Below are positions 1 through 52,948 of a DNA stretch of 52,948 nt, one piece after another; position 1 is the stretch's first letter; each line of letters opens with the position of its first letter. The position numbers and the translations under genes were made by a program. This DNA comes from a virus (Duplodnaviria > Caudoviricetes): IMG/VR virus record IMGVR_UViG_3300030451_004849, positions 1 to 52,948 of that record. One strand, given 5' to 3'. The notes under the pieces were generated by a model. The model did no database searches, was not told where the DNA came from, and saw nothing but the letters and a program-made list of their open reading frames with translations.

Positions 1-21
1 CACTAAAAGTGGCAGGGACCA
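1..21. repeat. Terminal overlap (left copy); genome circular or circularly permuted
   Basis: cactaaaagtggcagggacca (1-21) matches cactaaaagtggcaggggcca (52928-52948) at 20/21 nt; the giant ORF reads in frame across the junction. Confidence 0.9.
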
Positions 22-3000
22 ACCGCAACCCTGGCGGAGTAACCATTTGGAGCGGAGCTAAAGCGGTTGGCCACTGACCAAAAAAGGCCCTATCTCGTTC
101 TTTTTCATCACCAAAGATCCAGTCGGCTGTGTCCTGGAACCAGTTCCATGGGGCAGGCATTGCACTTTCAAATAATGAGTATGCGAACACATTCCCAAGT
201 CCGAAAACGAACATGTCGGTAAGATATTGCCTTTTAAATTTTTCAAATTCAGGAGTACCTCTCCTAAATCCTAACATTTTTGCTTGTCTATAAGCATCAT
301 TTCTAAATCTAACAGAGTTCCAAGCCCAAGTTTGGAATCTTGTCATAACTTTACCTAATGCTGTAGTAGAAAAAGCTGGTCTATATGGAGCAGAATATAA
401 GAATTGTGTAGCTTGAACACCCTTTTTAGCCATTTCTATTAACAATGGATGATCTAACGGCATATTTGAATGTCCATATAGTTCTCTAGCTTGTAAATAA
501 TGAGCTGCAAAAGAATCTCTTCTTAACATTCTTTCAGGCTCTCTCATAAACCATGCTGCTTTTTGGAAAGCAGACTCTGTAATCTTATGTTTTTTAGCTA
601 TACTAATTAACGTTTCGTCTTTTACATTAGGATCTTTCTCTAAAACTTTTTTAGCATCATTTAAAAAATGCTTCCATTTAGCAGATTTAAAACTTGGATT
701 TAAGCCTGCTTCATACAATATGAAATCTGGAACTACGCCATGCCCGATGACCCATTTATCAATATCTTCCTTCGACTTCCACTTACCAGCATCGCCACCG
801 ACATGAGTCCTAAAGTACTCAACACTTCGTCCATTACGCCAATTACGCCAACCTGATGATTGAATTGTATGAAGAGTACCACCAAAAATGTTTGCTGCAG
901 CGGACTTAGGGTGAGCAAGAAGAGTAGCCATTTCATATTTAGCTTCGAGATTAGACCAGTGTCGTATATCCATTTCATCTAAACCTCTCAATTCTTCAGG
1001 TAATCTTAAATCCTCTTTAAAACCTAAAGACTTTCTTATTTTATTTAATCTATTTTTAACATGATTATCAGCATACCAAGAATAAGGAGTGCCTTTTACT
1101 TTCATTAAATCTGCCTCTGGCCCGTCCATCCAATTTTCTGGAAGTTTAGAAGGGAACCCTAATGCTCTAGATATATAATCTTGAATATAATTTTTCCAAG
1201 CATGTACTTGACCTGGGTCTTTCCATTCTACAGAAACCTTTTCACTAAAATCTTGCAACATTTTTTTAGACATTATTTGTCCTATTTGTCTAAAGTATGT
1301 ATCAATCAAATTCTTTTGGTATATATCCCATGAACCAATATCTCTAGACCAGCCAGGTAGATCACTAGAACGCGACATCATATTAGGGGCTATAGGATTT
1401 TTTTCTAAATGAGAAAGATGCTCTCCTTTTCTTTTATCAGCAATCTCTCTTAAAGCTCCCATTTCTATAGTATCTTGTGTTATATCAGATATAATCCAAT
1501 CTCCAGTCATAGACTTGTATTGACCCATAAGCTTTTTAATTTCATTCTTCTGCCAATCAGGACCTTTACCTGTTTGACTTTTAATTTTATCTATAGCTTT
1601 TTCAATAGCAGCCTTAGCGACAGCTTTATTGTGAATAAATTGAGGGTGATAATCATTAGGTTTATAATAATTAGTTAAGTCTAACTTTTGATTTTGAAGA
1701 CTCAATATCATGCTATCATACAACTCTATTGATGCTTTATCAGTAACAAGACTTCTTTCGCTCATTAACCTATCCAACATAATAGATCGAGATATTTTTC
1801 TTAAATTATCAAGACCTAAATTCATCTTCATAGGTTCACCACTTTTTAATATATTCATTAAATATCTGGTAAATTTAGGAGCGTCTATTTTAGGTATTGA
1901 AGTATTGTTAGCCCAATACTGATTTTTACCCTTTTTGTCTTTTAATATAAATTGCTCAATAGGATCTTCAACTTTACTGTTTCTAATATAAGTTTGACTT
2001 TTAGTATCAAACATATAATGGCTGCCTCTAATCCACTTAAAAGTTTCTATAGCCCTATTTGTTAGTACATTGTTAATATCATTTGCAATTTCTCTACCTG
2101 TTTTCTTGAATGAACCGCCTGGTCTACTAACATTAAAAACTTTCTTTTCATTTTCAGCCCAATTTGCTAATTCTTTCGCTTCTTTAAGAGATGCTTCATA
2201 CTCTGCTTTCTTTGTATGATATTCTGCACTACTCATTGAACGTCTTTTACCTTTAAAAGCCCTTAAAGCACGCTCTGCAGACACTATTTCTGCAAAATGA
2301 TACCCAAGTCCATCTTCAACAGATTCATAGCCTGTTTTATCCCTTAATTCAGTTTCAAGTTTTATTTTTTCATCTTGATCCATTTTAACAGCTAAAGCCT
2401 CTGTTCTACCTAACACATATTGAATGTTTTCTATAGTATGAGTAGGAACACCTTGAGTTCCTCCAACCCATTCACCTTTAAAGTTTTGGAATCTACCTTG
2501 TTGTTCAAATATAGTAAAATCTTTAACCATCATCTCTTTAGATACTGCTCTAGGGAATAACATCCAATGTCTTTGAGACAATTTAACTATTCCATCTGCA
2601 GTCAACTTACCTGGTTTTACAAAAATACTACCTGTACGCATTTCTCTAAAGAAATTATTCATAACTCTGAAATCATCAACTGTAAATGCATCAAAGTTTT
2701 TCTGTCTTAAACCTCTAGCAATAAGGTTTAAATTATCTATAGAGCCTACGCTATTATGATAATGTTTAATGTGCCCTATTAATTCATCAACCATTTTACG
2801 TTCAGCGTCAGTTAATTTAAATGGACCTGCTTTTTTAGCTCTTTCTCTAATATCCATTACGCCCTGTAAATCATTTTCCATAGGGTCTTGAGGAGCAATT
2901 TCTTTTAATTCTCCTTTAGTTTCCATATCTGCAGTAGTTTTTGATTCTTTTAAAGGTTCTGATACATAATTAAACTCTTCTGCATATTGTTTAAAGAAAT

Positions 3001-6000
3001 CTCTAATAGCACCATCATTAACATACTTACTTGAAAGACCCGTTTTATTAAAATATGTACCTGATCCGCCCAACTGAATTTCTTTAATTAAAGGTGCAAC
3101 TAATTGTCTAACATCATTATTAAGTTTTTTATAAGCTGCTAGTTTTGTTAAATCTGGACCTTTATAATATGAAGAAAGCATCATAGTATCAAATAGGTAG
3201 GACTCTTCTTTTGTTAAAACACCTTCTCCGCCTTGTTTCTTTTTCCAAGCATTATTTAATTTAAACCCTCTAATTCTTGTATCTATTTTCTCTTGTAAGG
3301 CAAAAGTTTTTAACTCAGGATCTACCTCAAATAGTGTTTTGAGATAGTATTTACCTTTATCATCAAGCATAACAACTTCTTCCTGGTCTACAATAGAACG
3401 TTCAGCAGCTTTTAATTTTTGAGCTCTTTCTATTTGTTTAGTATGATTAACAAAATTAGCCATATTATTTATAAACTCATCAGAAACACCCTTTTCTCTA
3501 GCATCTTTAATTGCTCTTAATAATTGTATTGCAGAGGTTCTGTCCATTGCATCATTTTGAGCAAATTCAGTTCCTTGTCTATATAGTCTATCAATAGCTC
3601 TAAATCTATAAGATTCTGAGTCTGAAATAGCTTGTGCTAAATCTTCTACACTTTTATATTTATTAGCATGTTCCCATGGAAATGATTTTTCTAAAAACTT
3701 TTTATCTTTCCATTGACCAGGTAAGTCTTCAAACAATTCTTTGTATAAATTAGGATTTTTAGCAAGTTCTGCTCTTACCTTAGGTAAGTATAGCTGTTTA
3801 CCAATAACTCTGTAAATGATAGGATTATCGACCGATTTAAAGCTTTCTCTACCTAATAGTCCTCCTGGCTTATTATATCCATCATTAATACCCTTTAATT
3901 CTAATGCTAGGTTGCTATTAAAATCTTCATACCTAGCTTCTAAAGTTTCAGGGTTAACTCTTCTTATTATATCATCAGTATAATCTAAAGGTTCTAATAT
4001 TTCAACCATTTTAGGCAACATAGTACCTCTTTGTGCCTCATTTAATTTATGTATACCTTGAGACATGTCATATACTTCATGAGCATAAAACCTTCTACCT
4101 TGGTCCCAATTTCTACTAAAGTATGCCTTATTAAAATCTGCAAATATTTTATAAGTTCCTTTTCTTGCATGAAAATGAGGAACAAATTTTGCTTGAACAT
4201 CTTTAGGAGCATTGTTCCAATCTATTTTGAATAATGAATGCCATCCTGTATTAAAATAATGATCAGCACCAGTTAATCCAACTTCATCTAATGGGTCAGA
4301 ACCGAAACCTATTTGAGCTCTTGATAATTCTCTAGAATAAGCAAGTTCAGCCTCAGTAACTCTAGGCTCTATATAAATAGTGTAAGCTTTTTTCTCACCT
4401 CTTGGAGAAAAATTAATAGCTTCTCTGTAGTCAGCTTTCCAACCTTTTCTTTTAGACTCTGGTAAAGCTTCATAGTCTTCAGTGGTTATTATATTACCTT
4501 TTTTATTAACAAATCTTTGAATACTATTTTTTAATAATGCATCATAAGTAGAATTTAATACTTGCTTTTGAACAACTGCTGGACCTAATTGATCTCTACC
4601 TGTAGAAGCATCTGCAGCTATATCCATTCTAGATTGAGGTGTATATTTACCAACAATAGATTTTTTTAATTCTAATGCTTTAGCATCACCATCATTTGTA
4701 GTCGTTAATAAATCTTGATAAGTTACCTTACCTTGCTTTATTTTAGCTAAAACAGCAGCATCATGAGCATTATTTGGATCTAAAGTAGACTTTAATACTT
4801 TTAAACCTTCTTTTGATATTTCAGCCGTTTTATTATCTTTGATAATTTTTGATTTAGGGTCTCTATACTCATACTTATTATCATGATACATTTTCCTATG
4901 AGCCTTATCAAGCCCAAATAAAACAAAAGCTTTATCTCCATCTAAATCTGCTCCACCTAATGCTCTCATTGTCCTAGGGTGAAATACTGCACCGTGTCCT
5001 TTAATACCTGTAAAACCTGCAAAAGTAAGTTCATGTGCCCCAGATATAGAGTCCATTGGAACCCTTAATGAGATTGTTTTAAAAAATTCTTTAACTTTAG
5101 GTTGATGCCCATACTTACTCCAAAGCTCTCCCAAAGTCATTCTTTGTTTACTTGATGTTATTATATTACTTACATCCCAGGAGACGTCTTTATAGTAATC
5201 ATCAAGGAAAAATAATTGGTCTGGATTTTCAACACCATATCTTTCTTTTAATATTTTTCTGTTAGCAGGGGCTCCTTTTCCAGAGGTGTTAAAATTTAGT
5301 TCAGGAAACTTTTTAACTAACCACGGATCATAACCTCTCATTCTAACTGATATAGAAGTGTCCCATTTCGGTCTAACGACTTTATTTACCACAAAGTTTC
5401 TCATTGAAGATTGTAAATAATTACGAACATCTTTATGTAGAAAAATAGCTAAATCAGGATAAATTTCCATAAGTCTATTTATATTAGAGGTAAATGTTTT
5501 AGCCTCTGCTACGGCATCTAAATATTCTGCTCTTGATATTTCACCAGAAGAATAATCTTGAGTTAATCTATCTACATTAGACCTTAATATTTTTTGATAT
5601 ATTCTAGCTACAAACTGAGGGTGATTTTCACTTTTAATAGCATCTATAGTCTCTGATAAACCTAATTTATCGATGTTATCTAAAATCTCATCTTGTTCAA
5701 ATCTTGTAAGTTCTTTTTGTTTCAATGCTTGATTTAATCTTGCATTCCAAGACTCTTCTCCAATATATCTATCACCAATAATCTCATTAAAGAACTTATT
5801 AATTTGTTCTTGAGGAATAGACTTAAAGGCATGTTCATGTAAGTTAGCCATTAACTGTTTAGGTATTAATTGAGGTTTAAGCATATGATCTGATTGCTTT
5901 TCAGATAATGAACCCCTAATATCAGATAGATTCATTTTATATGTTTCTCCCCCTGTATAATCAACAGAAAGGTCATCATTTACTTTTAATTCACCTATCT

Positions 6001-9000
6001 TCCTAGAACCATATTCCTTAGCAGCAGATTCAGGCATTAAAAATTGAATACCTTCTTTTCTCATATATTCAGATGCTTCTGGAGTTGCTTTATGAAACAT
6101 AAACTTACCTAACATAGCACCATGAGTTGGGTCACTACCAACAATAAAAGACTTATTTTGTCCAGACTCAGGCATTCCAAATGTTTTATTTAAAGCATCA
6201 ACAAACGTAGCCTCTGCAAGTATTGAACCATCTGTAGATTCAGTATATAGCACAGCTTTATCATCAGATGTTAAATTCTTATTATCAGCCTCTTTAAATA
6301 GTCTAAAACTAACCTGACCATTTGCCATAGACTTATCACCACCCATTTCCTGATATATTTTATTAAAGTATTTTGCATCAGCCTGAAAGCCGTCAGTCAT
6401 CCATATTTGATTACGCTTATTAAAACCTTTAGCATCTTTTATAGAAGAATTATCTCTAATCCAATGAATAAAATTTCTATCTGAACCATCTTTATTCTTA
6501 CCATAACTAGATTTCTTTAACCCATAAAGTTCTTTATCCCACATTAAATTAGAAAGAAAAGATCTATCAAAATATTCACTAGCCTCTTTTCTATTAAAAG
6601 CAGCCTTATTTCTATTTATAAATTTATTCTTTAGTTTATTGTAATGTTTTACTGCGTCTGGGGTAGTCTCTTTAAACACCTTTAATACACCATCAACCTC
6701 TGGCTTTAATTTTTTTACATTAACAACATCAGGGTGATACTTAAAGAAATACATTTTACCCGAATCGCCCTTACCACCATTATAGTAGTATCCTAATTCA
6801 TGAGCTTGCTTTAAAGATTGGGCTAGTAACTTATTAGCTGCACTCTGTGCTCTTTTAGCGCTCTTTCCACCCCAACCAGTAAAGTTCCCTTTTTTATTTA
6901 AATCTTTTAAAGGTATTTCTACTAACTTATTTCCTCTTTGAGTAACAGCATGATCAAGAACCATATATGCTCTATCTGGAGCGTCCTTACCTGTAGCTTT
7001 TCTATATATATTTTCATAAGCAAACTCAATTGCTTTAACAGAATCACCAGTCGACTTTAAGTTCCCAGCTAAATTCTCAGCTTGAGCACCTTCTAACACC
7101 ATTAATGATGTTCTGTTATCAACATTAGGGAAAAATTGAAGAGAAAAATGAGGAGTAGGTCTTTGCTCTACTTTTCTAATTAACATTTGTCTTAATTCAC
7201 CCTCTGCTATATTATCAAAGGCTGGTTGTTCTGGAAATGCTTTTTGTATGTCACCCAAAAATTTATCAAACTTGTCTAAAGACTTATGTTTTTCTAATAT
7301 ATCATAAATCTTTTTCTCTGCTTCAACTTTTTTAACACCCATTGCTTCAGAATCTAAACCATCTAAAACTTTAGGTAAATATTTGCTAACAAAAAATCTT
7401 GCTTTTTTCCTTATAATAACATCTGGAGCATCTCCAATATCAAAGTCTTCAACTTTATCTAATTCTTTTTGAGAGTCTATACGTCCATCTTTTTCTAATT
7501 GTTCCCTAGCTTTTTCTCTACCAGTTATAACATCACCGATTCTTTTCTGTAAATAATTAAGAGTATCGGGTGCATTATTTTTAAGCGCATTAAATATAGT
7601 CTCTGGAATAACTACCTTTTTACCTTCTGGTATTTGGTCTAAAGCCTCTTTAATTCTTTTTCTGTTTAAAGGAAGAGTTTCATCAGTCATTCCCTTTAAC
7701 GGCAACTCTATAACATTTTTATTAATTTCTTTTACATTGCCTTCTTTATTCAACTCTCCTGATGTAAGGAACACTTTTTCTTGATTTGCTTCAATATATT
7801 CAGGTGTAACTTGTTTTTCTACTTCAACTTTAGTCTCATATTTTTTAGCAGCCTCATTTATTTTAGCTTCTCTTACTGAATTACTAACCATTTCAGAAGT
7901 TATATCTACATCTATAGCATCCTTAATACCATCTATAGTTTCTCCTGCCATAACTGCTTGAGAACCAAATGTACCATGTCTCATAGCTATATTACTTATA
8001 ACTGATTCTTGTATATCTTTTGGTAGATCATCAAACCCTTTAACAAGTCTAGGGTCATAAACTTGCATATCCCATTGGAAAGGATTACCATTTTCATCTA
8101 ATCTTTTTAACTCTTTAGCAGTTGTTTTAGCTTGTTGTTCAACTTTTTCAGTGAACCTCATCGCTCTCATTTGACCTGCAGTGGTTTCATGAGCACCAAA
8201 ATATGCACCTAATAGGTACGAGTAGATTTGTTCTGGAGTTGTTTCTCCTCGCATTGACGATTGGAGCCCCTCATATAACGAAGACGCTGCTGCACGTATG
8301 AGCCTATCTTCGTTCTGAGTAGCTGTGTAAACCATTTTCCCTGTTTCCTGATCAAGCTTTGGTATACCTCCTTTATTAACTAGATTTGCTATACCTCTAA
8401 AGGCACCACCAGTAAGACCACCATGTAAACCAGCTTTAAGCATTTCATTAACACCTAATTGCCATGCAGATATACTACTTGCAACACCTAAATTAAAAGC
8501 ACCTTCTGCGACGTGTTTCGCATTATCTGTTGTTAAAAACTTTGCAACATCAGAATAAGCACTATTTTTTACTTCAGCAGCTTTAGTTAATGTTTTAGAT
8601 ACAATAGGAGCAACTTTTTCTGTTGCCTTATTAGATAGCCATAGTGGAACAGAATTACCTTTTAGAGCCCTGGCAGCCTCTGCTAATCCTTTCATTCCTA
8701 ATACTTTAAAAGGAGCTGATGGTATATAGCCTACAAAACCACCTAATTGACCAATAGAACGCATTATACGTTCATATTCATTTTGAGAGGGTTCGCCTAC
8801 ATTAAACGTAGAAAAGCCTGAAAGAAAACCTTCTCCCATGCCTTTAATACCTCTTAATAAATCAAACTCTGAATCTCTGGGACTTCCTTTTGGAGGTTCA
8901 GGTATATCCATTTTATAATGAACGGCATGATTTTTTAATTGAGATACTAACTCAGGTTTAAAAACCCAAGGTTTCTGTTTGTAAGCATCTAATAATCGAG

Positions 9001-9067
9001 CAGTAGTTTGCTGATTATAGAATGGCTTGAAATCGACCAGCCTGTCGAGTTCAGCATATTCCGACAT
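1..9067 (-). CDS. Giant (~3087 aa including the part across the junction) virion-associated two-barrel RNA polymerase / ejection protein
   Basis: Manual translation from ATG 9067 (GGAG RBS upstream): MSEYAELDRLVDFKP...; same frame carries ESTDGSI (D~946), LGKFMF (K~988), PESAAK (K~1017), LRVP (R~1335) and GGADLDGD (DLDGD at 4934-4948). No ORF is listed in this frame, consistent with no stop before the window edge; continues at 52927 to the stop at 52731. Confidence 0.85.
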   Translation of the reverse strand, partial: MSEYAELDRLVDFKPFYNQQTTARLLDAYKQKPWVFKPELVSQLKNHAVHYKMDIPEPPKGSPRDSEFDLLRGIKGMGEGFLSGFSTFNVGEPSQNEYERIMRSIGQLGGFVGYIPSAPFKVLGMKGLAEAARALKGNSVPLWLSNKATEKVAPIVSKTLTKAAEVKNSAYSDVAKFLTTDNAKHVAEGAFNLGVASSISAWQLGVNEMLKAGLHGGLTGGAFRGIANLVNKGGIPKLDQETGKMVYTATQNEDRLIRAAASSLYEGLQSSMRGETTPEQIYSYLLGAYFGAHETTAGQMRAMRFTEKVEQQAKTTAKELKRLDENGNPFQWDMQVYDPRLVKGFDDLPKDIQESVISNIAMRHGTFGSQAVMAGETIDGIKDAIDVDITSEMVSNSVREAKINEAAKKYETKVEVEKQVTPEYIEANQEKVFLTSGELNKEGNVKEINKNVIELPLKGMTDETLPLNRKRIKEALDQIPEGKKVVIPETIFNALKNNAPDTLNYLQKRIGDVITGREKAREQLEKDGRIDSQKELDKVEDFDIGDAPDVIIRKKARFFVSKYLPKVLDGLDSEAMGVKKVEAEKKIYDILEKHKSLDKFDKFLGDIQKAFPEQPAFDNIAEGELRQMLIRKVEQRPTPHFSLQFFPNVDNRTSLMVLEGAQAENLAGNLKSTGDSVKAIEFAYENIYRKATGKDAPDRAYMVLDHAVTQRGNKLVEIPLKDLNKKGNFTGWGGKSAKRAQSAANKLLAQSLKQAHELGYYYNGGKGDSGKMYFFKYHPDVVNVKKLKPEVDGVLKVFKETTPDAVKHYNKLKNKFINRNKAAFNRKEASEYFDRSFLSNLMWDKELYGLKKSSYGKNKDGSDRNFIHWIRDNSSIKDAKGFNKRNQIWMTDGFQADAKYFNKIYQEMGGDKSMANGQVSFRLFKEADNKNLTSDDKAVLYTESTDGSILAEATFVDALNKTFGMPESGQNKSFIVGSDPTHGAMLGKFMFHKATPEASEYMRKEGIQFLMPESAAKEYGSRKIGELKVNDDLSVDYTGGETYKMNLSDIRGSLSEKQSDHMLKPQLIPKQLMANLHEHAFKSIPQEQINKFFNEIIGDRYIGEESWNARLNQALKQKELTRFEQDEILDNIDKLGLSETIDAIKSENHPQFVARIYQKILRSNVDRLTQDYSSGEISRAEYLDAVAEAKTFTSNINRLMEIYPDLAIFLHKDVRNYLQSSMRNFVVNKVVRPKWDTSISVRMRGYDPWLVKKFPELNFNTSGKGAPANRKILKERYGVENPDQLFFLDDYYKDVSWDVSNIITSSKQRMTLGELWSKYGHQPKVKEFFKTISLRVPMDSISGAHELTFAGFTGIKGHGAVFHPRTMRALGGADLDGDKAFVLFGLDKAHRKMYHDNKYEYRDPKSKIIKDNKTAEISKEGLKVLKSTLDPNNAHDAAVLAKIKQGKVTYQDLLTTTNDGDAKALELKKSIVGKYTPQSRMDIAADASTGRDQLGPAVVQKQVLNSTYDALLKNSIQRFVNKKGNIITTEDYEALPESKRKGWKADYREAINFSPRGEKKAYTIYIEPRVTEAELAYSRELSRAQIGFGSDPLDEVGLTGADHYFNTGWHSLFKIDWNNAPKDVQAKFVPHFHARKGTYKIFADFNKAYFSRNWDQGRRFYAHEVYDMSQGIHKLNEAQRGTMLPKMVEILEPLDYTDDIIRRVNPETLEARYEDFNSNLALELKGINDGYNKPGGLLGRESFKSVDNPIIYRVIGKQLYLPKVRAELAKNPNLYKELFEDLPGQWKDKKFLEKSFPWEHANKYKSVEDLAQAISDSESYRFRAIDRLYRQGTEFAQNDAMDRTSAIQLLRAIKDAREKGVSDEFINNMANFVNHTKQIERAQKLKAAERSIVDQEEVVMLDDKGKYYLKTLFEVDPELKTFALQEKIDTRIRGFKLNNAWKKKQGGEGVLTKEESYLFDTMMLSSYYKGPDLTKLAAYKKLNNDVRQLVAPLIKEIQLGGSGTYFNKTGLSSKYVNDGAIRDFFKQYAEEFNYVSEPLKESKTTADMETKGELKEIAPQDPMENDLQGVMDIRERAKKAGPFKLTDAERKMVDELIGHIKHYHNSVGSIDNLNLIARGLRQKNFDAFTVDDFRVMNNFFREMRTGSIFVKPGKLTADGIVKLSQRHWMLFPRAVSKEMMVKDFTIFEQQGRFQNFKGEWVGGTQGVPTHTIENIQYVLGRTEALAVKMDQDEKIKLETELRDKTGYESVEDGLGYHFAEIVSAERALRAFKGKRRSMSSAEYHTKKAEYEASLKEAKELANWAENEKKVFNVSRPGGSFKKTGREIANDINNVLTNRAIETFKWIRGSHYMFDTKSQTYIRNSKVEDPIEQFILKDKKGKNQYWANNTSIPKIDAPKFTRYLMNILKSGEPMKMNLGLDNLRKISRSIMLDRLMSERSLVTDKASIELYDSMILSLQNQKLDLTNYYKPNDYHPQFIHNKAVAKAAIEKAIDKIKSQTGKGPDWQKNEIKKLMGQYKSMTGDWIISDITQDTIEMGALREIADKRKGEHLSHLEKNPIAPNMMSRSSDLPGWSRDIGSWDIYQKNLIDTYFRQIGQIMSKKMLQDFSEKVSVEWKDPGQVHAWKNYIQDYISRALGFPSKLPENWMDGPEADLMKVKGTPYSWYADNHVKNRLNKIRKSLGFKEDLRLPEELRGLDEMDIRHWSNLEAKYEMATLLAHPKSAAANIFGGTLHTIQSSGWRNWRNGRSVEYFRTHVGGDAGKWKSKEDIDKWVIGHGVVPDFILYEAGLNPSFKSAKWKHFLNDAKKVLEKDPNVKDETLISIAKKHKITESAFQKAAWFMREPERMLRRDSFAAHYLQARELYGHSNMPLDHPLLIEMAKKGVQATQFLYSAPYRPAFSTTALGKVMTRFQTWAWNSVRFRNDAYRQAKMLGFRRGTPEFEKFKRQYLTDMFVFGLGNVFAYSLFESAMPAPWNWFQDTADWIFGDEKERDRAFFGQWPTALAPLQMVTPPGLRLVPATFS

Positions 9068-9078
9068 TTATTACTCCA

Positions 9079-10353
9079 TTATACGTTAAAAGGATCTAAG
9101 GCAGCATCTTCTAATTCTTGTCTGCTTGGTTCCCTTTTATTAAGCATAGACAATGCACCAAGACCCATACCACCAGACATTGCTGCTTGCCATTTATCTA
9201 TATCACCCAAAGTTGCAGGAGTAGGTAATTCAGTTGACCCTTTTCTTTGAGCTAATTTTACAATCTGTTTAACAGCTTCACTATCTAATTTAGTTACATT
9301 TTTAGATTTTAAATATTCTTCTATAACCTGTACTTGAGGTTTAGTAGGATTCTTAACTCCAGCCTTAATTAAAGCATCTTTAATATTTTTAGAATTTACT
9401 AGTTTTCTAGCATCTAATCCATTAGCCATTTTAATAATTTGGTCTGGTTTTAATCCATTTAAATTAACAGGACCAGACATATTAGCCGTATTTAATTGAG
9501 ATATATATTCTTTAGCAATCTTGCTATTTTTTCCATATGTTCTGTTAATCATATTAGTTAAAGATTTAACCTGACCAGAAGTTAAGTTTGCTCCAGAAAC
9601 AACTTCTTCTAAATTGCCAGTGTTAGCTATTGCTTGTCTACTTCTAACTAATGTATCTGCTTGAGCTTTTCTACCAGCTGCAGTTTGAGCATTTTTAGCC
9701 CATTGCCATCCAGCATTTGCACCATAAGGTGTTAAAGCTTGTTTGCCTGACTGAATTGCACTAGTAGTCATTCTTCCTACAGGAAGTTTTGATATTGCAG
9801 TTGCCCCTAAACCTCCTAAAGATTTAGCAGTTCCACCTAATCCTCTGGCAGCTGCACTAATTTTACCTAATCCTTGAGCTCCCCTTACTCCTGAAGCTAG
9901 AGCCGCACCTGCTTTACCTACATTACCTAATGCCGCACCAACTGTAGGAGCCGCCATTCCACCTGATGCTATAGTCGCTGCTACTGCTGCAGCTATTTGA
10001 GCCGCTGCACCGCCTATTTTACCAGCGTTTTTAGCAACTCTAGTACTTTCATCTGAATACCATTTATCTGGCATTAAATCAAATACTACAGAGTCTGCTA
10101 AACCACCTCCAAATGCTAAGGCATTCGCCCCAAAACTAGCAGTTTTTTCTTGTCTTTGAAATGGGATCTGATATTGCATAGCCATACGCTCTATCTGAGC
10201 AATCATAGTATTGTTGAAATTATTAGGATTACGCTCATACTGCCTAATATAAGCCAACACTCTTTTTCTTTCGTTCTTTAACTGTCTTTCTTCAGCTGTA
10301 ATTGGAGCCTGCATTTGGCCACCAGTTAAGCTCATTTGTCCCATTATTGGCAT
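9079..10353 (-). CDS. Internal virion/ejection protein (Ala/Gly-rich, hydrophobic segment)
   Basis: 424-aa ORF, Ala/Gly-rich, between tail genes and the giant protein; RBS AAGGAG. Confidence 0.55.
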   Translation of the reverse strand: MPIMGQMSLTGGQMQAPITAEERQLKNERKRVLAYIRQYERNPNNFNNTMIAQIERMAMQYQIPFQRQEKTASFGANALAFGGGLADSVVFDLMPDKWYSDESTRVAKNAGKIGGAAAQIAAAVAATIASGGMAAPTVGAALGNVGKAGAALASGVRGAQGLGKISAAARGLGGTAKSLGGLGATAISKLPVGRMTTSAIQSGKQALTPYGANAGWQWAKNAQTAAGRKAQADTLVRSRQAIANTGNLEEVVSGANLTSGQVKSLTNMINRTYGKNSKIAKEYISQLNTANMSGPVNLNGLKPDQIIKMANGLDARKLVNSKNIKDALIKAGVKNPTKPQVQVIEEYLKSKNVTKLDSEAVKQIVKLAQRKGSTELPTPATLGDIDKWQAAMSGGMGLGALSMLNKREPSRQELEDAALDPFNV

Positions 10354-10363
10354 TATATTCTCC

Positions 10364-11350
10364 TTACCATATGTTTGCTGAACTTCCTGACATGTCTTGC
10401 CACTTACCGTCTACCTTAACTTGAGCTTTGCCTTCATGAACCCTTACTTCATAGTAATCGTTAGGACTCCAAGCATCGTTTTCACCTAACATAAACTTAC
10501 CATCACCTTGTGCCTCTAGCCACATATCATCTAATTGAGTCCACTTACCTTGACCTACTTCCCAATTACGCATATCTTCTATAGCTTGAAGTAATATACC
10601 TTTTTCTCTTACATCGTCTTTTGTTGGATTTAAAGTGTTTGACTTAAAGTATGTACCACCACCCCAATCTGAGGTATCTCCGTGGATCGTCATATAACCA
10701 TCATAATCTTCGCCTGGAGTAAAGTATTTAGATGCCTCTATTTCACTAGCTAAAGAACTAGATGCATTATCTTTATTAAATACATCATAAAAATCTTCAT
10801 CAGGAGACTTTTCTTGACCTAATTCCATCAAGTAACCTTCTACTGCATTTGCAAACCCTGGATTATCTTTAAACAATTGATTAAACTCAGTCTCATTTAA
10901 GTGAGAGAGACTTTTCTTTAGACCAAGTAACTTTGTTTTTGCATAATCGGTTGAGGCTTGATTAATATATTGCATATCAGCATAAGTTAAATCCTCTCCA
11001 GACCAACCATCTCCAGCTTGATTTATATAATCTGAATAACTGTGTTGATTAGTCCATGTATCTAATATATCTTGATAGTTTTCTGCAACTACAGGCTTAC
11101 CATCTGCACCTACTTGTATAATAGGAGAGTCCGAAACATCTCTAAACATATTTTGTAATATACCTTCTCTAGCAGTCTGAGCTTTATTTTCTTTTTCTTG
11201 AGCAGCATAAGATGCTATAGCCCTTTTACGAGCTATTTCATTATTCTTTTGCTGTTCTTTAAACTCAAAAGCCTGCTTAACACTGTTAACAGCATTATCC
11301 ATAGCATTGCTAAGAATGTTATGTCCTTGATATGTTCCGAAATCTGGCAT
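10364..11350 (-). CDS. Putative internal virion protein
   Basis: 328-aa ORF with N-terminal coiled coil, in the ejection-protein cluster. Confidence 0.5.
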   Translation of the reverse strand: MPDFGTYQGHNILSNAMDNAVNSVKQAFEFKEQQKNNEIARKRAIASYAAQEKENKAQTAREGILQNMFRDVSDSPIIQVGADGKPVVAENYQDILDTWTNQHSYSDYINQAGDGWSGEDLTYADMQYINQASTDYAKTKLLGLKKSLSHLNETEFNQLFKDNPGFANAVEGYLMELGQEKSPDEDFYDVFNKDNASSSLASEIEASKYFTPGEDYDGYMTIHGDTSDWGGGTYFKSNTLNPTKDDVREKGILLQAIEDMRNWEVGQGKWTQLDDMWLEAQGDGKFMLGENDAWSPNDYYEVRVHEGKAQVKVDGKWQDMSGSSANIW

Positions 11351-11997
11351 TACTTAGGAGCCTGTCCTGGTCTATTCTTATATTGTTCTGCAGTCATAAT
11401 GTTATCATTACTATATCCACCTGGAAGTATTCCTCCAAGACCTTTATCTGCATTATACCAAGCATTTTTAAGCCAACCACCTAATTTAGTGTTAGCGTTT
11501 GCTTTTCTTTCTGCAGCCATTTTATCATTATAATCATATTTTAAAGGATCATTTCCTGCAAGAGCTTCTTCTTGAGCAACTCTTTCTCTATATGCAGCTT
11601 CAGTTTTAGGACCAAACATACCGTCTTCTTTAACTCCTAAAGCTCTTTGAACCTTTTTTACTGATTCAGGGTCATTCATATCAAATTCTCTGATAGATGT
11701 TTGTTTTGCAAACCCACCAGTTCCTGGATCATCATTATAACCTAATCCACCATCATAAGCGTAATCAAATGCTGCAGCTGCAGGAAGAAAAGGTGCTGTT
11801 GCAGTGTAATAAGCTGCATTGCCTAATGCATTTTTAGCCTTTTCTTTTGTACCTATGATAGCCGTATCGTCTGCAAACCAACCCTCATTTGGGCCTGCGC
11901 CTGTAAAATCTTTTACTGTTTGTGTAGTGGACTTACCATCCCAATCAGGGAGTATTCCCTCATTGCCTGCCCACCAATTTGACCAATTAAAAGCCAT
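11350..11997 (-). CDS. Virion protein with PG_binding_1-like peptidoglycan-binding domain
   Basis: VKKVQRALGVKEDGMFGPKTEAA matches the Q-x-x-L-G-x-x-x-DG-x-x-G-x-x-T motif. Confidence 0.65.
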   Translation of the reverse strand: MAFNWSNWWAGNEGILPDWDGKSTTQTVKDFTGAGPNEGWFADDTAIIGTKEKAKNALGNAAYYTATAPFLPAAAAFDYAYDGGLGYNDDPGTGGFAKQTSIREFDMNDPESVKKVQRALGVKEDGMFGPKTEAAYRERVAQEEALAGNDPLKYDYNDKMAAERKANANTKLGGWLKNAWYNADKGLGGILPGGYSNDNIMTAEQYKNRPGQAPK

Positions 11998-12018
11998 TTG
12001 TCTCTCTCCTCTTTGTTA

Positions 12019-12444
12019 TTATTTATAACTTTGGTAGTGTCCAAAGTCCATGTTGTTAAAAGCATCTTGTAAAGGATTACCTTTACTTTCTTTTTTAGCT
12101 TCATTCATTGCTTGTTGAGCAGCATTATCTGCGCTCTGAGCTGTATCTTGAGATGGTTGTCCAGATACCCACTTATCATAAGCACCTTGTGTTTCTGGTC
12201 CTACTATACCATCTACTGTTACACCTAATTCTGATTGAACTTTTTTAATTTGGTCAGGAGACATTTGGCTAAAATCTAGCCCAGTACCTAAAGCACCACC
12301 GCCACCTCCTGCAGAGTTTCCACCAGATAAAAACCCTCCAGCTTTATCCATAAAACCGCCAAATTTATCCATTCCTAATCCACTAGCAACACTTCCTATT
12401 CCTGATGCTGCTTGTCCTAATAACCCTGTTAATCCTGCAAACAT
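12019..12444 (-). CDS. Gly-rich virion protein with PG_binding_1-like domain
   Basis: IKKVQSELGVTVDGIVGPETQGA motif. Confidence 0.65.
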   Translation of the reverse strand: MFAGLTGLLGQAASGIGSVASGLGMDKFGGFMDKAGGFLSGGNSAGGGGGALGTGLDFSQMSPDQIKKVQSELGVTVDGIVGPETQGAYDKWVSGQPSQDTAQSADNAAQQAMNEAKKESKGNPLQDAFNNMDFGHYQSYK

Positions 12445-14539: not shown

Positions 14540-17500
14540 TTAGTTAGTCCCCGTATTAGATACTTGCCACGTCAAATATACTCTAAATATATCATCTCTA
14601 TCAGATTTTGCTGTAATTTGTATTCTACCCTTATTGTTACCATAATGGTAAGGTCGAGCGCCTGTCGTTGTTCCTGAGGTCATTACAGGGACTCTTTGAT
14701 AAATAGAGTGATTGTGCAAGCTATTTGTAGATGTAGTCGCATTACCCCAATCAATACCTATAGAATCTCCAAATGAATACCAACTACTCCAAGTATCACC
14801 AGTACCATAGCGATAATATAATCTTATATAGTCTTCTGCACCTCTTACAGCATCTGGTTGAAAATAAGCAACACAGTTTAATGTGTTATAATACCCAGCA
14901 TTATATATAGTATCATAAAAATTATTATCATAAGATTCTTGAGGAGTTGACCCTATAATGTCTCTAGTATATTTATAATAAGAGCCAAAAATGTGGTGTG
15001 GTACATAATAATATTGATTTGTTTCGGTATTAGGCTTTAAACTTCTTATTATAGGTTTGTCGTTAAAAGATACTCTTGCGTCAAAAACAGGAGCCTTGAT
15101 AAGCCCTTTAAATTCCATCTGCCCTGTAGATGAATCAAATAAAATCTTAGGCTGAACACCAGTTCCTGGTATAGTCACCCCACTTCCAGCTCTGACACTA
15201 AATTTTTGAGAGCTATTTACAGTTCCTAAGAAAAAACTATTATTAGTATCATATCCTCCTCCATTATTCATGATATGAGCATTATCACCGACTCGCAAAC
15301 TTCCTTGCATGCTAATATCCCCAGTATCGCCGCTTATAATTACACTAGGGGAACCTTGTGAAAGCGAACCAAACATTAAACTGTTACCATTCCAATTAAG
15401 TTGATTTACACCGTCATCATCTTTTAATTGAAATACAGAATTACCAGAATTTAAACCAAAGTATGTTCTCCAATTGTCTCCATCATATATTCCAAATATA
15501 TCACTACCTGCATAAAATCCTGCTCCTGCTGGCGGTGCTGCAGGTAAAGCTAAACTTGAATCAATATACATTTGCACTTGGTCAAAATATACATGCTCAA
15601 CACCTGGAGATTCTTGACTACTATGTTCATCTACAAATATCCAAGGAACTACCCACCCAATAGGCTCTGTTGAACCTGAAAAATTCCAAGTAGCAGGAAT
15701 AACCCATGTACCTTGAAATTGATTCCATGAATTTGCAGTTTGGTCTGTTTTTGCTATACTATACCAAGTCCAACTAGTCTTGTCTGCATTATACATTTTT
15801 ACACCGACTCTACCTAGTTCATTTTTAATTGCTTGCTGCCATTGTCCAGATTTAATATATCCCATAAATGAAACCGAAATCTTCATTCCAGGAACAACAG
15901 GGTATACTGTTTCTGCTCCTGTTAAATCAGTTTGATAGGCGTCTGAATTAGCATTTGTACCACTTACTATTGATGCTCCTTTTAAAGAATAATCTCCAGA
16001 AGAAGGGTTAACATCTCCTGAGTCCGCTTTAGAAAATAAAGATGAATTACTACCATCTCCTCCTTTCCACATTTGCATATTATCATAATTAGAGCCAGGG
16101 TCAGGGTTAAATTCCATATTCCAATCAACAATCATGTTTCCACCAATTTGTTGACTGATCCATTCTGCTGCCTGATAATTTGAAAGAGCATCAAAGTTAG
16201 GTAAATTATTTAAATCAGTTCCTAAATCATCTATACTATCTGATAAATTGTCTAATTCTTGCTGTAACCCTCCACCAGTAACATTAATATCTCCTGATAT
16301 AACTAAATTAGAGCCGTCCCAAGATAAACCGACACCTTCACCAGATTGATCAGTTTGCCAAGTGTCACTAGTATCCCCTGTATTAACTAACGCAGAACCT
16401 AACCTAAACGTTCCATCTACATTAAGTTCTACTTTTTTACTTCCATTGTTATATATATTTAAAGGAGTATTAAAAAGCCTTAAGCCCTTATTGTTATCTA
16501 TAGTAGCACCTTTTAAATAAGATGTGCTTAATGTTGCATCATCGGCGATTATCATACCAAAATCAACATCTTCATTTTCGCTATAATCTGCCATATTACG
16601 CAAGTTACCCAACACAACTACCTTTTTAGCAGCATCCCATGCTGTATCAGTAGTTTTTGCGGCATTTAAGCTTATTCTAGGGCCATAACTATTTAATGTA
16701 GAGCCAGTAGACGTTAATTCAATATATCCTTTATTTCCAGCTCCTCCTAATTTGTATAAACAAACTACAGCTTCACCTGGGTTCCAAGTATTTTGAACAC
16801 CATCGTTATTTACATCTCTATTGGTTATTTGTATTCTATATTCTGGATTTGCAGAAGTGCCATAATTCGTATCATCATCAACTGCACTTGTTTTTATTAC
16901 CTCAGTTTTAGGAGCACCATCATCTTTTATTCCTTGTAATATAACATAGGCATTTTTTAGATTATCATCATTATGCTCTACTGCCATATAACCTGTTTCT
17001 GTATTAGACAAGGTCTGAACTAATTTTGTTGTAGGTGCTATTAATAACTGTCCTCCAATAGTACTCATAACATGCATAGCAACTAGATTTTGAACAACTA
17101 ATTCTCCAGCATGAATACTATTAAATTGCCTATCTAAATCACCTAAATTGGTTTGAAGTGTCCCTTCTGGTAAAACTGCCTTACCAGCGGGTAATAAGTT
17201 TATATTACCTATAGTTTCAAGATTTAAATTACCACCTGTATCTACTTTAAAATCAAAGTATTTATTAGAGTCATATTCAATTCTTAATTGACCTACAGAC
17301 CTTGTGTCTCTTATAATAACACCAGGTTTATTTTGGTCATCTGTTAAATAATGATAATCTTGCCCAAAGTTTGAGTGGCTAGCAACATCTATAAGCACAC
17401 CACCATCTATTCTAGTAGGTCCATATATTCTAGTTTTATTAGACATAGAATCGATAACATTAATATTTAAGTTACCTTTATTAAGATCTACATTTCCACC

Positions 17501-18331
17501 TAGCTCAGTATCATTGTTTTGTAATTGAGCGTAAGAAACTACTAAGTCTCCATCTATCCTAACATCTCCGTACACATCTAATGCCCAATCAGTTCCAGAT
17601 GTTGGACCATTTATAGTAAGTTTTTTACCAGTTGTTCCAGGCGTTGTTCCACCAAAGGTATTAGCTCCTTCCCATACATAATCTGGAGCAGGGTCAATTT
17701 TATGCTTATGATCCCATCTAGCTGCAACATTTTGACTACCTGTATCGGCATTAGTATTATCAACTAAACTATCTGCTATATTAGGTGGAGATAAAGGGAA
17801 GTGTATAACGTTTAGATGATTGTTTTCATCATTATATGTGATATTACCACCAGTATAAGATAGGTCTAAAAGAATAGGGTTATTAAGAGTCCAGTGTTCA
17901 TGAGTGTGATTACCTACTGCTACTTGATCTGCTTGAGTCCCAACATCAGAGTTTCCTGCTAAATTTTCAAAGGTAACGCCATATTTAGTTATATAAGGCT
18001 CTATTCCTTGTCCAGGCATAGTATATGTAGCTATATCTGAATTATCGGGATTTTTCTCCTCTAAAGTAAGATTTACTGTTGCCCAACCATCATCAAACCT
18101 ACCTTGTAAAAAATAACCACTAGATCCGTCTAACCCCGAACCTTTATAAAGGCGCATGTCTCCTGGTTTACCAATAATTCCTTGTACGCTTGAAGTTCCA
18201 CTTGGAAAGTTTACAGCATCAGCGACACTATTTAAATCTTTATATATAGTATCTACTATTCTCTGTACTTTTGGGTCAGAGATTTTAGGAGCACTTTTCC
18301 TTAATTTTCCTAAAGCACCTCTTATTCCCAT
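14540..18331 (-). CDS. Large tail fibre / receptor-binding protein with carbohydrate-binding-like domain
   Basis: 1263 aa, Gly/Asn/Thr-rich beta repeats; segment from GGNMIVDWNME to HVYFDQVQM resembles a jelly-roll CBM. Confidence 0.65.
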   Translation of the reverse strand: MGIRGALGKLRKSAPKISDPKVQRIVDTIYKDLNSVADAVNFPSGTSSVQGIIGKPGDMRLYKGSGLDGSSGYFLQGRFDDGWATVNLTLEEKNPDNSDIATYTMPGQGIEPYITKYGVTFENLAGNSDVGTQADQVAVGNHTHEHWTLNNPILLDLSYTGGNITYNDENNHLNVIHFPLSPPNIADSLVDNTNADTGSQNVAARWDHKHKIDPAPDYVWEGANTFGGTTPGTTGKKLTINGPTSGTDWALDVYGDVRIDGDLVVSYAQLQNNDTELGGNVDLNKGNLNINVIDSMSNKTRIYGPTRIDGGVLIDVASHSNFGQDYHYLTDDQNKPGVIIRDTRSVGQLRIEYDSNKYFDFKVDTGGNLNLETIGNINLLPAGKAVLPEGTLQTNLGDLDRQFNSIHAGELVVQNLVAMHVMSTIGGQLLIAPTTKLVQTLSNTETGYMAVEHNDDNLKNAYVILQGIKDDGAPKTEVIKTSAVDDDTNYGTSANPEYRIQITNRDVNNDGVQNTWNPGEAVVCLYKLGGAGNKGYIELTSTGSTLNSYGPRISLNAAKTTDTAWDAAKKVVVLGNLRNMADYSENEDVDFGMIIADDATLSTSYLKGATIDNNKGLRLFNTPLNIYNNGSKKVELNVDGTFRLGSALVNTGDTSDTWQTDQSGEGVGLSWDGSNLVISGDINVTGGGLQQELDNLSDSIDDLGTDLNNLPNFDALSNYQAAEWISQQIGGNMIVDWNMEFNPDPGSNYDNMQMWKGGDGSNSSLFSKADSGDVNPSSGDYSLKGASIVSGTNANSDAYQTDLTGAETVYPVVPGMKISVSFMGYIKSGQWQQAIKNELGRVGVKMYNADKTSWTWYSIAKTDQTANSWNQFQGTWVIPATWNFSGSTEPIGWVVPWIFVDEHSSQESPGVEHVYFDQVQMYIDSSLALPAAPPAGAGFYAGSDIFGIYDGDNWRTYFGLNSGNSVFQLKDDDGVNQLNWNGNSLMFGSLSQGSPSVIISGDTGDISMQGSLRVGDNAHIMNNGGGYDTNNSFFLGTVNSSQKFSVRAGSGVTIPGTGVQPKILFDSSTGQMEFKGLIKAPVFDARVSFNDKPIIRSLKPNTETNQYYYVPHHIFGSYYKYTRDIIGSTPQESYDNNFYDTIYNAGYYNTLNCVAYFQPDAVRGAEDYIRLYYRYGTGDTWSSWYSFGDSIGIDWGNATTSTNSLHNHSIYQRVPVMTSGTTTGARPYHYGNNKGRIQITAKSDRDDIFRVYLTWQVSNTGTN

Positions 18332-22794: not shown

Positions 22795-23058
22795 TTATCT
22801 CTTCTTTAATAAGTTTGTTACTATTTTAACAAGTGCGTCATAAGATGCACTCATTTTTTTCACTTCAAGTTGTAATTTCTTTTGCTGGTCAATTAACTTT
22901 ACTATTATAGCTTCTAATCTAGTAAATTGTTGACTTAAATCTTTAGCTAAATCATCTTGTATATATTTGTTTTGCTTCCATATGAAGTAACCGAACGCTA
23001 CAGCTACTGCAACTGGAACACCAAATTGCTCGAGCAAAGTTATTGGATCCATTATCAC
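22795..23058 (-). CDS. Holin-like membrane protein (one N-terminal TM plus coiled coil)
   Basis: LLEQFGVPVAVAVAFGYFIWK followed by a coiled coil; BhlA/UviB-like architecture. Confidence 0.55.
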   Translation of the reverse strand: MIMDPITLLEQFGVPVAVAVAFGYFIWKQNKYIQDDLAKDLSQQFTRLEAIIVKLIDQQKKLQLEVKKMSASYDALVKIVTNLLKKR

Positions 23059-23807: not shown

Positions 23808-24175
23808 TAGTTTACATTCTCCGTTGTATCTAACCAATCATTAGGATTGGTCCATAGTTTGCTGCCTTCTTCAAGCATTTTTTCTGTATAGCTTCCTGTA
23901 TATTTTAGGTGTAAGTGCTCACAATCATCGCAAATCCAAAATAGATTGTCTTTATTGCAAGCACCTAATATTTCTAAAGCTACTATTCTTTTACTCTTAC
24001 ACTTATTACAACATTCAGGTTTTTTCTTATAGACTTTATCGTCTTTTTTAACTCCAACTTGTCCAAGTCTTGTCGAAGAATTATTATTTATAACTATATC
24101 TGAATAAACAGTTATTTCTGTGTAGTCTAACAATTCTACTTTTTTCCTAACAGTTGCGATTTTACTTTTGCCCAT
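23807..24175 (-). CDS. Zinc-ribbon protein
   Basis: CNKC...CDDC; start uncertain. Confidence 0.6.
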   Translation of the reverse strand: MGKSKIATVRKKVELLDYTEITVYSDIVINNNSSTRLGQVGVKKDDKVYKKKPECCNKCKSKRIVALEILGACNKDNLFWICDDCEHLHLKYTGSYTEKMLEEGSKLWTNPNDWLDTTENVN

Positions 24176-37267: not shown

Positions 37268-37403
37268 TGTACGTGATATACATTGACCCGACCCCGTCGG
37301 ATTCTACGGCATGGGGTGCCTTGCCAGGTTGAATCCAGGACGGTTCAGTTCAACTTGAGCCAAGTGTGGCTCTTCCCCTATCCTGCTTGGGCAGGTTGCC
37401 CAC
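37268..37403 (+). other. GC-rich multi-hairpin element upstream of the first plus-strand gene
   Basis: Stems accccg/tggggt (37291-37317), caggttgaa/ttcaacttg (37325-37357), gagcca/tggctc (37357-37372), cctgc/gcagg (37382-37395) in AT-rich surroundings. Confidence 0.55.
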
Positions 37404-37445
37404 AATTAATCTTAATAATAAATAATAAAATAAGGAATATTAATT

Positions 37446-41529: not shown

Positions 41530-41545
41530 AAAACAAGGAGGTATT

Positions 41546-51379: not shown

Positions 51380-52744
51380 TTACTCATCGTCATCTCCTAA
51401 TAACGTTGCTCCTGTTGCAAAAAGACCTCCACCTGTAGCAGTCCCCCATTTAGCAACTCTGCTAGCAGTGATCGGTGTATTATCCAATACATCAACAATT
51501 TCTTTATTACCTTCTAATTGCTTTTTCGTTAACTGAGTATTCCTATAGACAAGTTCATTGTCAGTAGGAGCTTTAGTGTTTTTATATTTTTTTTTCATAG
51601 TCTTAATAGACTCTGTTTGTTTTTTATACTTTTTAGCGTCACGCTTAGTTTTAGCAGCTATTTTTTTATTTATTTCAACAAAATTCTTATTCCAGTTATT
51701 TGGGTCTGGTATATCTATTTTTTTCATGCCCATAATATTTAAGTTTTGATTCTTAAACCCTAAACCTTTAGAAATTAATTTATCAAAACCTCTGCCATAT
51801 ATATCATAAACATCATTAGGTATTAAATAAGCCTTACCTGGCTCAGAAGGTTTAAGTAGTACTCTTGCGTTTATTCCTCCTGTGTAAAAGTTAGATTTAA
51901 ATTGAGGACTATAATTAACCATAACATAGTTACCTACTTTTTTAACCTGACCTGGATTAAAGCCGTTACTTACAAGATAGCCCATTAATTCATCTTTATT
52001 TTTAAACTTTCTATTAAAAGTTATACCAGCCATCTGTCTAAATTGTTTAGAAAATTGAACATCTCTATGTAGGTTATTTAAAGCACCTTTATTTAACTCC
52101 ATAATCTTTAATGTTTTTGGGTCTAATCCTTCAAACCTTATTATATCGTCTAATACGGCTTTATTTCCAGTAAGTTTAGCAGCAGATGTTTTACTAATGT
52201 TTTTACCATAGATTTTATTAAATATATCACTTACAATCGTATTCTTAGGAGTTACTCCAGTTCTATTTATATTTGCTTGTGCAAAATAAGGTGTAGCATG
52301 TAAGTCTTTAACTAATGGAGTTACAGCAGATTGAGCTTCATCAGTTAACTTAACTTTTCTAGGCTTTGTCCATCTACCATTTTTTAATTGTCTAGAAGGA
52401 ATCGTATAAGATTGTCCAACGACACCAGAACGCCAATTTTTAGGGTCTTTTAATATTTTAGCAATTAGATCAGGATTATTTCTTAATACTTGTTGTTGAT
52501 TCAATGCTAAGCCTGTATTTTTAAACGCCTCTGCACTTCTCATAGAAAAAGGATTAAACGTTTGATTTGCTAGCGTTTTAAATGCTTTTGCAGCACCGAT
52601 TAAAAATGTTTCTACTTGAGGCATTCCCGTCGCAGGATTATACAAAGAAGGTAAATAAGAAGGTGTAGATGCACCTGCTTTTAAGCCTTGACGACCTAAA
52701 AACTTTGCTGCTGCCTGTGCAATACTTAAGCTACTCTTCAGCAT
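51380..52744 (-). CDS. Basic hypothetical protein downstream of the giant RNAP
   Basis: 454-aa Lys/Asn-rich ORF overlapping the RNAP stop codon. Confidence 0.65.
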   Translation of the reverse strand: MLKSSLSIAQAAAKFLGRQGLKAGASTPSYLPSLYNPATGMPQVETFLIGAAKAFKTLANQTFNPFSMRSAEAFKNTGLALNQQQVLRNNPDLIAKILKDPKNWRSGVVGQSYTIPSRQLKNGRWTKPRKVKLTDEAQSAVTPLVKDLHATPYFAQANINRTGVTPKNTIVSDIFNKIYGKNISKTSAAKLTGNKAVLDDIIRFEGLDPKTLKIMELNKGALNNLHRDVQFSKQFRQMAGITFNRKFKNKDELMGYLVSNGFNPGQVKKVGNYVMVNYSPQFKSNFYTGGINARVLLKPSEPGKAYLIPNDVYDIYGRGFDKLISKGLGFKNQNLNIMGMKKIDIPDPNNWNKNFVEINKKIAAKTKRDAKKYKKQTESIKTMKKKYKNTKAPTDNELVYRNTQLTKKQLEGNKEIVDVLDNTPITASRVAKWGTATGGGLFATGATLLGDDDE

Positions 52745-52948
52745 CGTCTTTTACCCTATATTTAGTAATTTCTCTAGCCATTTGTTGATAAGGAATACCA
52801 GTTGTTTTTTCTATAGTTCTCATAGGATTTTCTAAAATACCTTTAGTATCTCTAGCCATACGGCCAAAGGGGAACATTGTCCACATATAATATTCAGAAA
52901 TCCTGCTAAAATCATTGTTCACCAGACCACTAAAAGTGGCAGGGGCCA
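52731..52948 (-). CDS. C-terminal 65 aa of the giant RNAP ORF (continues from position 1)
   Basis: ...PATFS|GLVNNDFSRISEYY...DDAEE* is in frame across the terminal overlap. Confidence 0.85.
   Translation of the reverse strand, partial: APATFSGLVNNDFSRISEYYMWTMFPFGRMARDTKGILENPMRTIEKTTGIPYQQMAREITKYRVKDDAEE
52928..52948. repeat. Terminal overlap (right copy)
   Basis: 20/21 identity with positions 1-21. Confidence 0.9.

Follow-up and report, generated by a model that had tools for sequence, protein, structure and literature searches.

The window analysed here is the whole of IMG/VR virus record IMGVR_UViG_3300030451_004849 (52,948 bp; Caudoviricetes), which IMG/VR classes as linear and to which CheckV assigns a completeness of 100%. 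Its most prominent feature is a giant minus-strand gene, interrupted by the ends of the record, whose product is predicted to be an RNA polymerase. The giant open reading frame (ORF) is free of stops from an ATG at 9065-9067 to base 2, giving 3022 residues with an open end. The ends of the record (1-21 and 52928-52948) carry the same 21-nt sequence with one mismatch (G/A), which probably points to a circular or permuted assembly from a population with slight heterogeneity. Read over this junction, the frame gave 3094 residues, or 3087 after subtraction of the 7 duplicated residues, with the stop at 52731. The initial annotation, made from the DNA letters, had proposed a hidden ORF of about 3087 codons running off the edge, and translation of the circularised record bore this out, with no in-frame stop over the full 3087 residues. 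Protein collection entry P0002 (3087 aa) agrees, its first 3022 residues being identical to the ORF and the remainder continuing exactly as reading over the junction predicts, and the same C-terminal tail was found in uninterrupted homologues on other contigs. Since this is a 9.2-kb open frame in DNA of 32-35% GC, it is not random. The giant gene and the parts of its product are as follows.

2..9067, minus strand: giant ORF, residues 1-3022 of 3087, with ATG start, running off the start of the record; equal to P0002.
52731..52948, minus strand: part of the giant ORF beyond the junction, comprising its final 65 residues and the stop, from the junction reading, P0002 and the tail kept in homologues.
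7928..9067, minus strand: N-terminal module, residues ~1-380, conserved with a peak at 101-300; Gly-rich, with mildly hydrophobic stretches by hydropathy.
6848..7927, minus strand: variable linker, residues ~381-740, where relatives carry inserted AlkB-like, cpYpsA/SLOG and other domains.
3548..6847, minus strand: predicted two-barrel RNA polymerase core, residues 741-1840, the part that was modelled.
5903..6385, minus strand: first double-psi beta-barrel (DPBB), beta-like, residues ~895-1055, placed by invariant D946, G947, K972, K988 and K1017 and by an expansin alignment.
6224-6238, 6104-6109 and 6017-6028, minus strand: STDGS, GK and SAAK motifs in the first DPBB.
4913..5362, minus strand: second DPBB, beta'-like, residues ~1236-1385, placed by invariant residues, alignments to DPBB proteins and a profile alignment to phage phi14:2 gp66.
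5057-5068 and 4934-4957, minus strand: LRVP and GGADLDGD motifs in the second DPBB.
2..3547, minus strand: C-terminal 1182 residues (1841-3022), mostly helical.

The initial annotation had singled out five motifs as those of a DPBB polymerase. All five were found in the order given and in a single frame between residues 944 and 1378 (STDGS at 944, GK at 987, SAAK at 1014, LRVP at 1334 and GGADLDGD at 1371), and DLDGD (1374-1378) is the sole match to D.DG[DE] in the giant protein. Alignment of the modelled part in 61 sequences whose identity falls as low as 21% identified K884, D946, G947, K972, K988, K1017, G1103, R1335, P1337, G1343, G1351, A1373, D1374, D1376 and D1378 as invariant. These include the lysines of the beta-like barrel (K972, K988 and K1017) and the catalytic triad D1374, D1376 and D1378, which makes up the DxDxD metal-binding motif of the beta'-like barrel; the catalytic residues were likewise invariant in a 62-sequence alignment. 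Both barrel segments are local peaks of conservation, with 0.39 and 0.53 identity compared with 0.11-0.28 in neighbouring segments. The invariant positions are thus the same residues as the motifs noticed in the DNA and, together with the length of the frame, this is far beyond chance.

To obtain a structure for this region, residues 741-1840 were aligned with 61 relatives cut to the homologous region and modelled with AlphaFold2. The model had a mean predicted local distance difference test (pLDDT) score of 90.3 and a predicted template modelling (pTM) score of 0.87. Foldseek against the PDB placed phi14:2 gp66 (6vr4_A) first (E 4.7e-8), followed by the eukaryotic RNA interference (RNAi) polymerase QDE-1 (E 2.3e-6 and up), and then by bacterial beta' chains, RDR2 and P74 gp62. 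With VIA-align, gp66 was at the top of both runs, with 647-746 aligned residues compared with 445-537 for QDE-1 and RDR2, while the Z-scores on the Foldseek candidates were a tie (12.5 for gp66 and 12.2-12.3 for QDE-1 and RDR2). When 48,161 chains were ranked by structure, ranks 1-16 were all two-barrel polymerases, and matches in BFVD outside the protein's own family were crAss-like phage polymerase proteins, phi14:2 gp66 and P23-45. The whole model thus matches gp66, QDE-1 and RDR2, the first two being the comparisons that the initial annotation had called for.

The individual barrels could also be recognised. Positions 496-645 of the model aligned to the designed DPBB proteins 7dww and 7dvc and to VAT-N/Cdc48-N, confirming a DPBB around DLDGD as predicted, and positions 154-315 aligned to expansin chain 7xc8, which we take to be a DPBB fold. 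Long helices follow the second barrel (for example 737-772 of the model), where two-barrel polymerases have their bridge helix and trigger loop. In these model alignments two DPBB domains form one active centre, as in the polymerase superfamily. Together, these data support the prediction that the giant protein contains, in a single chain, a DNA-dependent RNA polymerase of the two-barrel type with a core at about residues 741-2030, which would make RNA on a template in a Mg-dependent manner. The first ~190 residues after 1840 may still belong to the polymerase.

Several results weigh against this assignment. Single-sequence phmmer against PDB sequences found no match, gp66 included, and a 62-sequence profile recovered just one unrelated chain (E 0.79). 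When the full-length protein was compared with Pfam by hmmscan (E ≤ 1), LysM and EAD11 alone were returned, both below the cut-off, and PHROGs gave no match. An hhalign comparison of the family profile with gp66 was not significant (E 0.23), and global TM-scores in the Foldseek search of the PDB did not exceed 0.33. The TM-scores are low because only the core superposes, but with the sequence searches empty the case for a polymerase rests on predicted structure and motifs. The Pfam family of eukaryotic-type RNA-dependent RNA polymerases (RdRPs; PF05183) gave no match at E ≤ 1, so by this measure the protein is not one of its members. The sole stretch aligned by hhalign was RVPMDS...GGADLDGDKAF on gp66 1313-1372, which includes DFDID and is thus the catalytic barrel.

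Relatives of the giant protein are numerous. A word-indexed search found 211 related proteins of ~1,700-3,500 aa, most near 3,000, and the family comprises at least 318 representatives at 50% identity (E ≤ 1e-3), or 99 at E ≤ 1e-30, and is present in 198 IMG/VR contigs. Where a source is named, it is TARA or another marine metagenome, with no cultured member; complete genomes of relatives are 49-54 kb. No match to the giant protein was found by tblastn in 50,697 GenBank phage records, and a scan of 185,579 prokaryote species, each represented by one genome, gave 121 pattern matches, none of which was confirmed, and so no relative. We found no description of this marine family in the part of the literature that was searched, and lists of homologues in the supplements of papers on crAss-like phages may already include such contigs.

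Conservation among these relatives extends well beyond the core. Compared with 34 relatives, identity peaked at residues 101-300, 901-1100 and 1301-1400 and was highest at 2701-3087 (0.49-0.64), whereas residues 301-700 were variable; the ends of the protein are thus more conserved than most of the core. Residues ~2500-3087 form the best-conserved part and hold the only clearly hydrophobic stretch of the protein (2948-2970). The N-terminal part ranges from 322 to 1111 aa across relatives, and the C-terminal part is uniform at 1135-1417 aa. An Ala/Gly-rich N-terminal region had also been annotated. Enrichment was present (Ala plus Gly 17-20% in residues 1-400) but mild, most later 200-residue windows having 10-17% and the last, partial one 18%. 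The N-terminal module may serve in ejection or in interaction with the envelope.

Some relatives carry additional domains (P0016, P0024, P0030, P0031, P0048 and P0181, and locus L026). An AlkB-like 2OG-Fe(II) oxygenase is inserted before the polymerase core, a cpYpsA/SLOG domain either ahead of the core or within the C-terminal part, and DUF7831 inside the core-aligned region. These may be cargo enzymes injected with the protein. Outside the family, the helical C-terminal model matched BFVD entries for LPD-containing polyvalent proteins, SLT/lysozyme-bearing proteins of ~1300 aa and a phiKMV-type internal core protein, with E from 1e-6 to 1e-2 and TM-scores of just 0.15-0.3. Leads from a protein atlas to polyvalent proteins (LPD22, LPD14, P22 gp16 and LPD38/39; scores 0.80-0.94) could not be confirmed by any Pfam match; for the N-terminal module these were LPD22 and P22 gp16 only, equally unconfirmed. 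LPD, MuF and SLT Pfam domains were not found in the giant protein, in 38 of 57 C-terminal family fragments, or in 56 N-terminal ones.

The position of the gene suggested a role in the virion. The late operon of this podovirus-like genome lies on the minus strand. Its products are an endolysin, TerL, a portal of the P22 type, a capsid protein of the SU10 type, a tail fibre, a metallophosphoesterase and two proteins of 1487 and 1263 aa, and it ends, in order, with genes for four small proteins, the giant gene and a gene for a protein of 454 aa. The giant gene is therefore the penultimate one of the structural operon and lies behind the tail genes, a position kept in relatives. Its neighbours and the other late features are listed below.

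9079..12444, minus strand: four cysteine-free genes (424, 328, 215 and 141 aa) directly upstream of the giant gene.
51380..52744, minus strand: cysteine-free 454-aa gene, last of the late operon, overlapping the stop of the giant ORF; relatives have a homologue of it behind their giant gene.
14540-22794, minus strand: large late proteins of 1263 and 1487 aa, with no family match.
23055-23837, minus strand: metallophosphoesterase within the structural module, as with phi14:2 g075.

The 424-aa upstream protein is Ala/Gly-rich with a hydrophobic stretch, the 215-aa protein has a PG_binding_3 domain and the Gly-rich 141-aa protein has a peptidoglycan-binding-like motif; the four are candidate companion ejection proteins. 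By tblastn, homologues of the 1487-aa protein were detected in 28 of 80 related loci. The giant protein has no cysteine in 3087 residues, where ~20 would be expected at the 0.65% of the other 46 ORFs. Homologous giant ORFs share this property, 76 of 80 having no cysteine and the other four having one. The six adjacent late genes (141, 215, 328, 424, 3087 and 454 aa; ~4650 residues; 2-12444 and 51380-52948, minus strand) encode no cysteine at all. We infer that cysteine exclusion adapts the protein to crossing the tail and the oxidising periplasm in an unfolded state. Lack of cysteine throughout a family offers a simple, testable signature for flagging ejected proteins. In phi14:2, the virion proteins gp65, gp66 and gp67 show a similar depletion (1, 2 and 1 cysteines in 1421, 2180 and 1797 aa).

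Because the gene lies at the end of the late operon, cysteine is lacking and the non-polymerase ends are conserved, packaging into the virion and ejection are likely; analogy with known systems and the weak fold resemblance of the C-terminal model point the same way. The overall reading that we favour, at a probability of roughly 0.7, is that a two-barrel polymerase is packaged in the virion and ejected to transcribe the early module, with packaging, ejection, template and timing inferred, while the analysis itself shows the ORF, its invariant catalytic residues and the fold of a polymerase. The giant protein would be made late and packaged into a podovirus particle. At infection it would pass through the tail in unfolded form, along with its small cysteine-free neighbours, and would refold in or at the cell envelope. 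It could then transcribe the plus-strand early module (37.4-51.1 kb) without the host polymerase, as do phi14:2 gp66 and N4 gp50.

The same enzyme might instead stay unpackaged and act inside the cell on middle or late genes, its flanks serving regulation or localisation. We consider this improbable. A gene that ends the late structural operon yields its product too late to drive that operon; known non-virion enzymes are of ~600 aa, compared with 3087 aa here; conservation is higher at the ends than over most of the core; and family-wide exclusion of cysteine, together with cysteine-free neighbours, points to passage through the tail and periplasm. About equally improbable is an ejected internal protein whose core has another role, such as replication priming, RNA-templated synthesis as in QDE-1, or a motor that pulls DNA. 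No DNA polymerase or other RNA polymerase was recognised by Pfam or PHROG among the 46 other ORFs, QDE-1 and RDR2 equal gp66 by Z-score, and the DLDGD form is that of RNAi polymerases, where gp66 has DFDID. Yet the best and longest structural match is to gp66, a DNA-dependent virion enzyme, the phage encodes its own primase-helicase, and DNA entry coupled to transcription would still be transcription.

Least probable by a wide margin is an ejection protein with a purely structural role, its polymerase fold being an inactive relic. Such a protein would not be expected to hold three aspartates, and the lysines and arginine of both barrels, invariant down to 21% identity, or to have its barrel segments as local conservation peaks. 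An ejected, transcribing polymerase thus remains the reading that we prefer. A bolder extension of it, which is speculative and which we rate as less likely than not, is that one polypeptide is the whole machine for entry and takeover: the conserved ends would form or anchor a conduit across the envelope, and the central polymerase would transcribe the DNA as it enters and thereby help to draw in the genome. In relatives the variable linker would hold enzymes (AlkB-like, SLOG) as injected cargo. As the family is widespread in ocean phages of hosts outside the Bacteroidota and has the GG.DLDGD form of the motif, it could also stand nearer to the eukaryotic RNAi polymerases than YonO or the crAss-like enzymes do.

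Single-chain two-barrel virion polymerases have been demonstrated experimentally in one crAss-like phage and one Thermus siphovirus. The polymerase of N4 is of the T7-like right-hand kind, an unrelated fold, and no chain of this type was among the structural matches listed for the core model. The resemblance to N4-like virion RNA polymerases (gp50; DEV gp71) is a functional analogy, with the same layout of a polymerase in the middle of the chain between non-polymerase ends. Passages in PMC13434306 and PMC11445570 describe N4 gp50 as a giant protein (~3500 aa) that transcribes early genes and whose ejection is accompanied by that of two smaller ejection proteins, and PMC10770324 mentions virion polymerases fused to large proteins in crAss-like, N4-like and P23-45 phages. 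In P23-45 gp96 the polymerase is fused to a siphovirus tape-measure protein, whereas here it lies mid-chain in a predicted podovirus internal protein; P23-45 gp64 and P74 gp62 are grouped here with gp96 for comparison. QDE-1 and RDR2 are structural matches, but they are RNA-dependent, while the template expected here is DNA, and the present protein is the product of a phage structural operon with huge flanks. Polyvalent and T7 gp16-type internal-core proteins resemble the C-terminal model weakly in fold; polyvalent proteins deliver cargo, and relatives of the giant protein carry cargo-like inserted enzymes.

The closest fold to the core is that of phi14:2 gp66, without detectable sequence similarity. 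According to preprint 10.1101/2020.03.07.982082, gp66 is carried in the virion and transcribes early genes in a rifampicin-resistant manner. The present genome recalls phi14:2 in its order of TerL, portal, capsid, phosphoesterase and giant proteins, and the cluster of giant proteins around gp66 is paralleled by the 1263- and 1487-aa late proteins. The two differ in the catalytic motif (DLDGD here, DFDID in gp66), in the size of the protein (3087 and 2180 aa), with an extra conserved C-terminal module of ~1050 residues here, and in the size of the genome (53 and 100 kb).

It had also been suggested that this phage may represent a lineage distinct from the crAss-like phages, and our comparisons supported this. 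The hallmark proteins TerL, portal and MCP belong to phrog_38, phrog_156 and phrog_1328 (Pfam SU10_MCP and P22_portal), while those of phi14:2 belong to other families (phrog_6681, phrog_6547 and phrog_11589). The hallmarks are thus not of Crassvirales type, phi14:2 being the only crassvirus compared. BLASTP of the MCP pair and the portal pair against phi14:2 gave nothing significant (E ≥ 0.38), and the nearest cultured portals and terminases share only 23-28% identity. A Shine-Dalgarno-like site lies ahead of 25 of the 47 ORFs (background 8%), compared with 2 of 31 in phi14:2. The host therefore probably uses Shine-Dalgarno sites, which argues that it is outside the Bacteroidota, and the different hallmark families together with the common Shine-Dalgarno sites set the lineage apart from crAss-like phages.

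The type of enzyme and the strategy are already known; what is new here is the family, a separate podovirus lineage with its likely host range, the three-module architecture of 3087 aa and the cysteine-free signature. A virion-borne polymerase of the cellular type has so far been known mainly from crAss-like phages of the gut. Its predicted counterpart now appears in a separate, widespread lineage of ~53-kb marine podoviruses with non-crassviral capsid genes. This suggests that early transcription by an injected cell-type polymerase, independent of the host, recurs in ocean phages. The protein is a compact, highly conserved model whose structure is predicted with confidence, and it adds a deep branch from which to trace the origins of two-barrel polymerases and RNAi RdRPs.

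The proposed template, the early and replication module, lies on the plus strand at 37.4-51.1 kb and encodes a peptide deformylase, ThiF, Sak4, a primase-helicase, a Gam-like protein and an HNH protein. Features of this region are given below.

36778-37445: divergent intergenic region of 670 bp between the late and early modules, with a GC-rich island at 37255-37420 in an AT-rich genome.
38716-39123, plus strand: peptide deformylase, early module.
41432-42976, plus strand: early ORF of 514 aa with no Pfam or PHROG match.
42900-44382, plus strand: adjacent early ORFs, one JAB-like (E 7.5e-4, below the cut-off) and one of the ThiF family, E1-like (E 9.8e-17).

The GC-rich island at 37255-37420 matched nothing in Rfam, contained no tRNA and had a folding z-score of -0.6. 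Sigma-70-like sites were not enriched in the record (64 compared with 69.8 expected). The sequence GTATTATAGTATAC had 8 matches in the record at ≤2 mismatches, compared with 1.17 expected, and at ≤1 mismatch it occurs in the early region at 37093, 37964 and 40403 (plus strand). It was considered as a conserved early promoter and rejected, as it is absent at ≤1 mismatch from five of five relatives' genomes. The neighbouring JAB-like and ThiF-family ORFs of the early module may form a pair that acts in ubiquitin-like conjugation or deconjugation in the phage.

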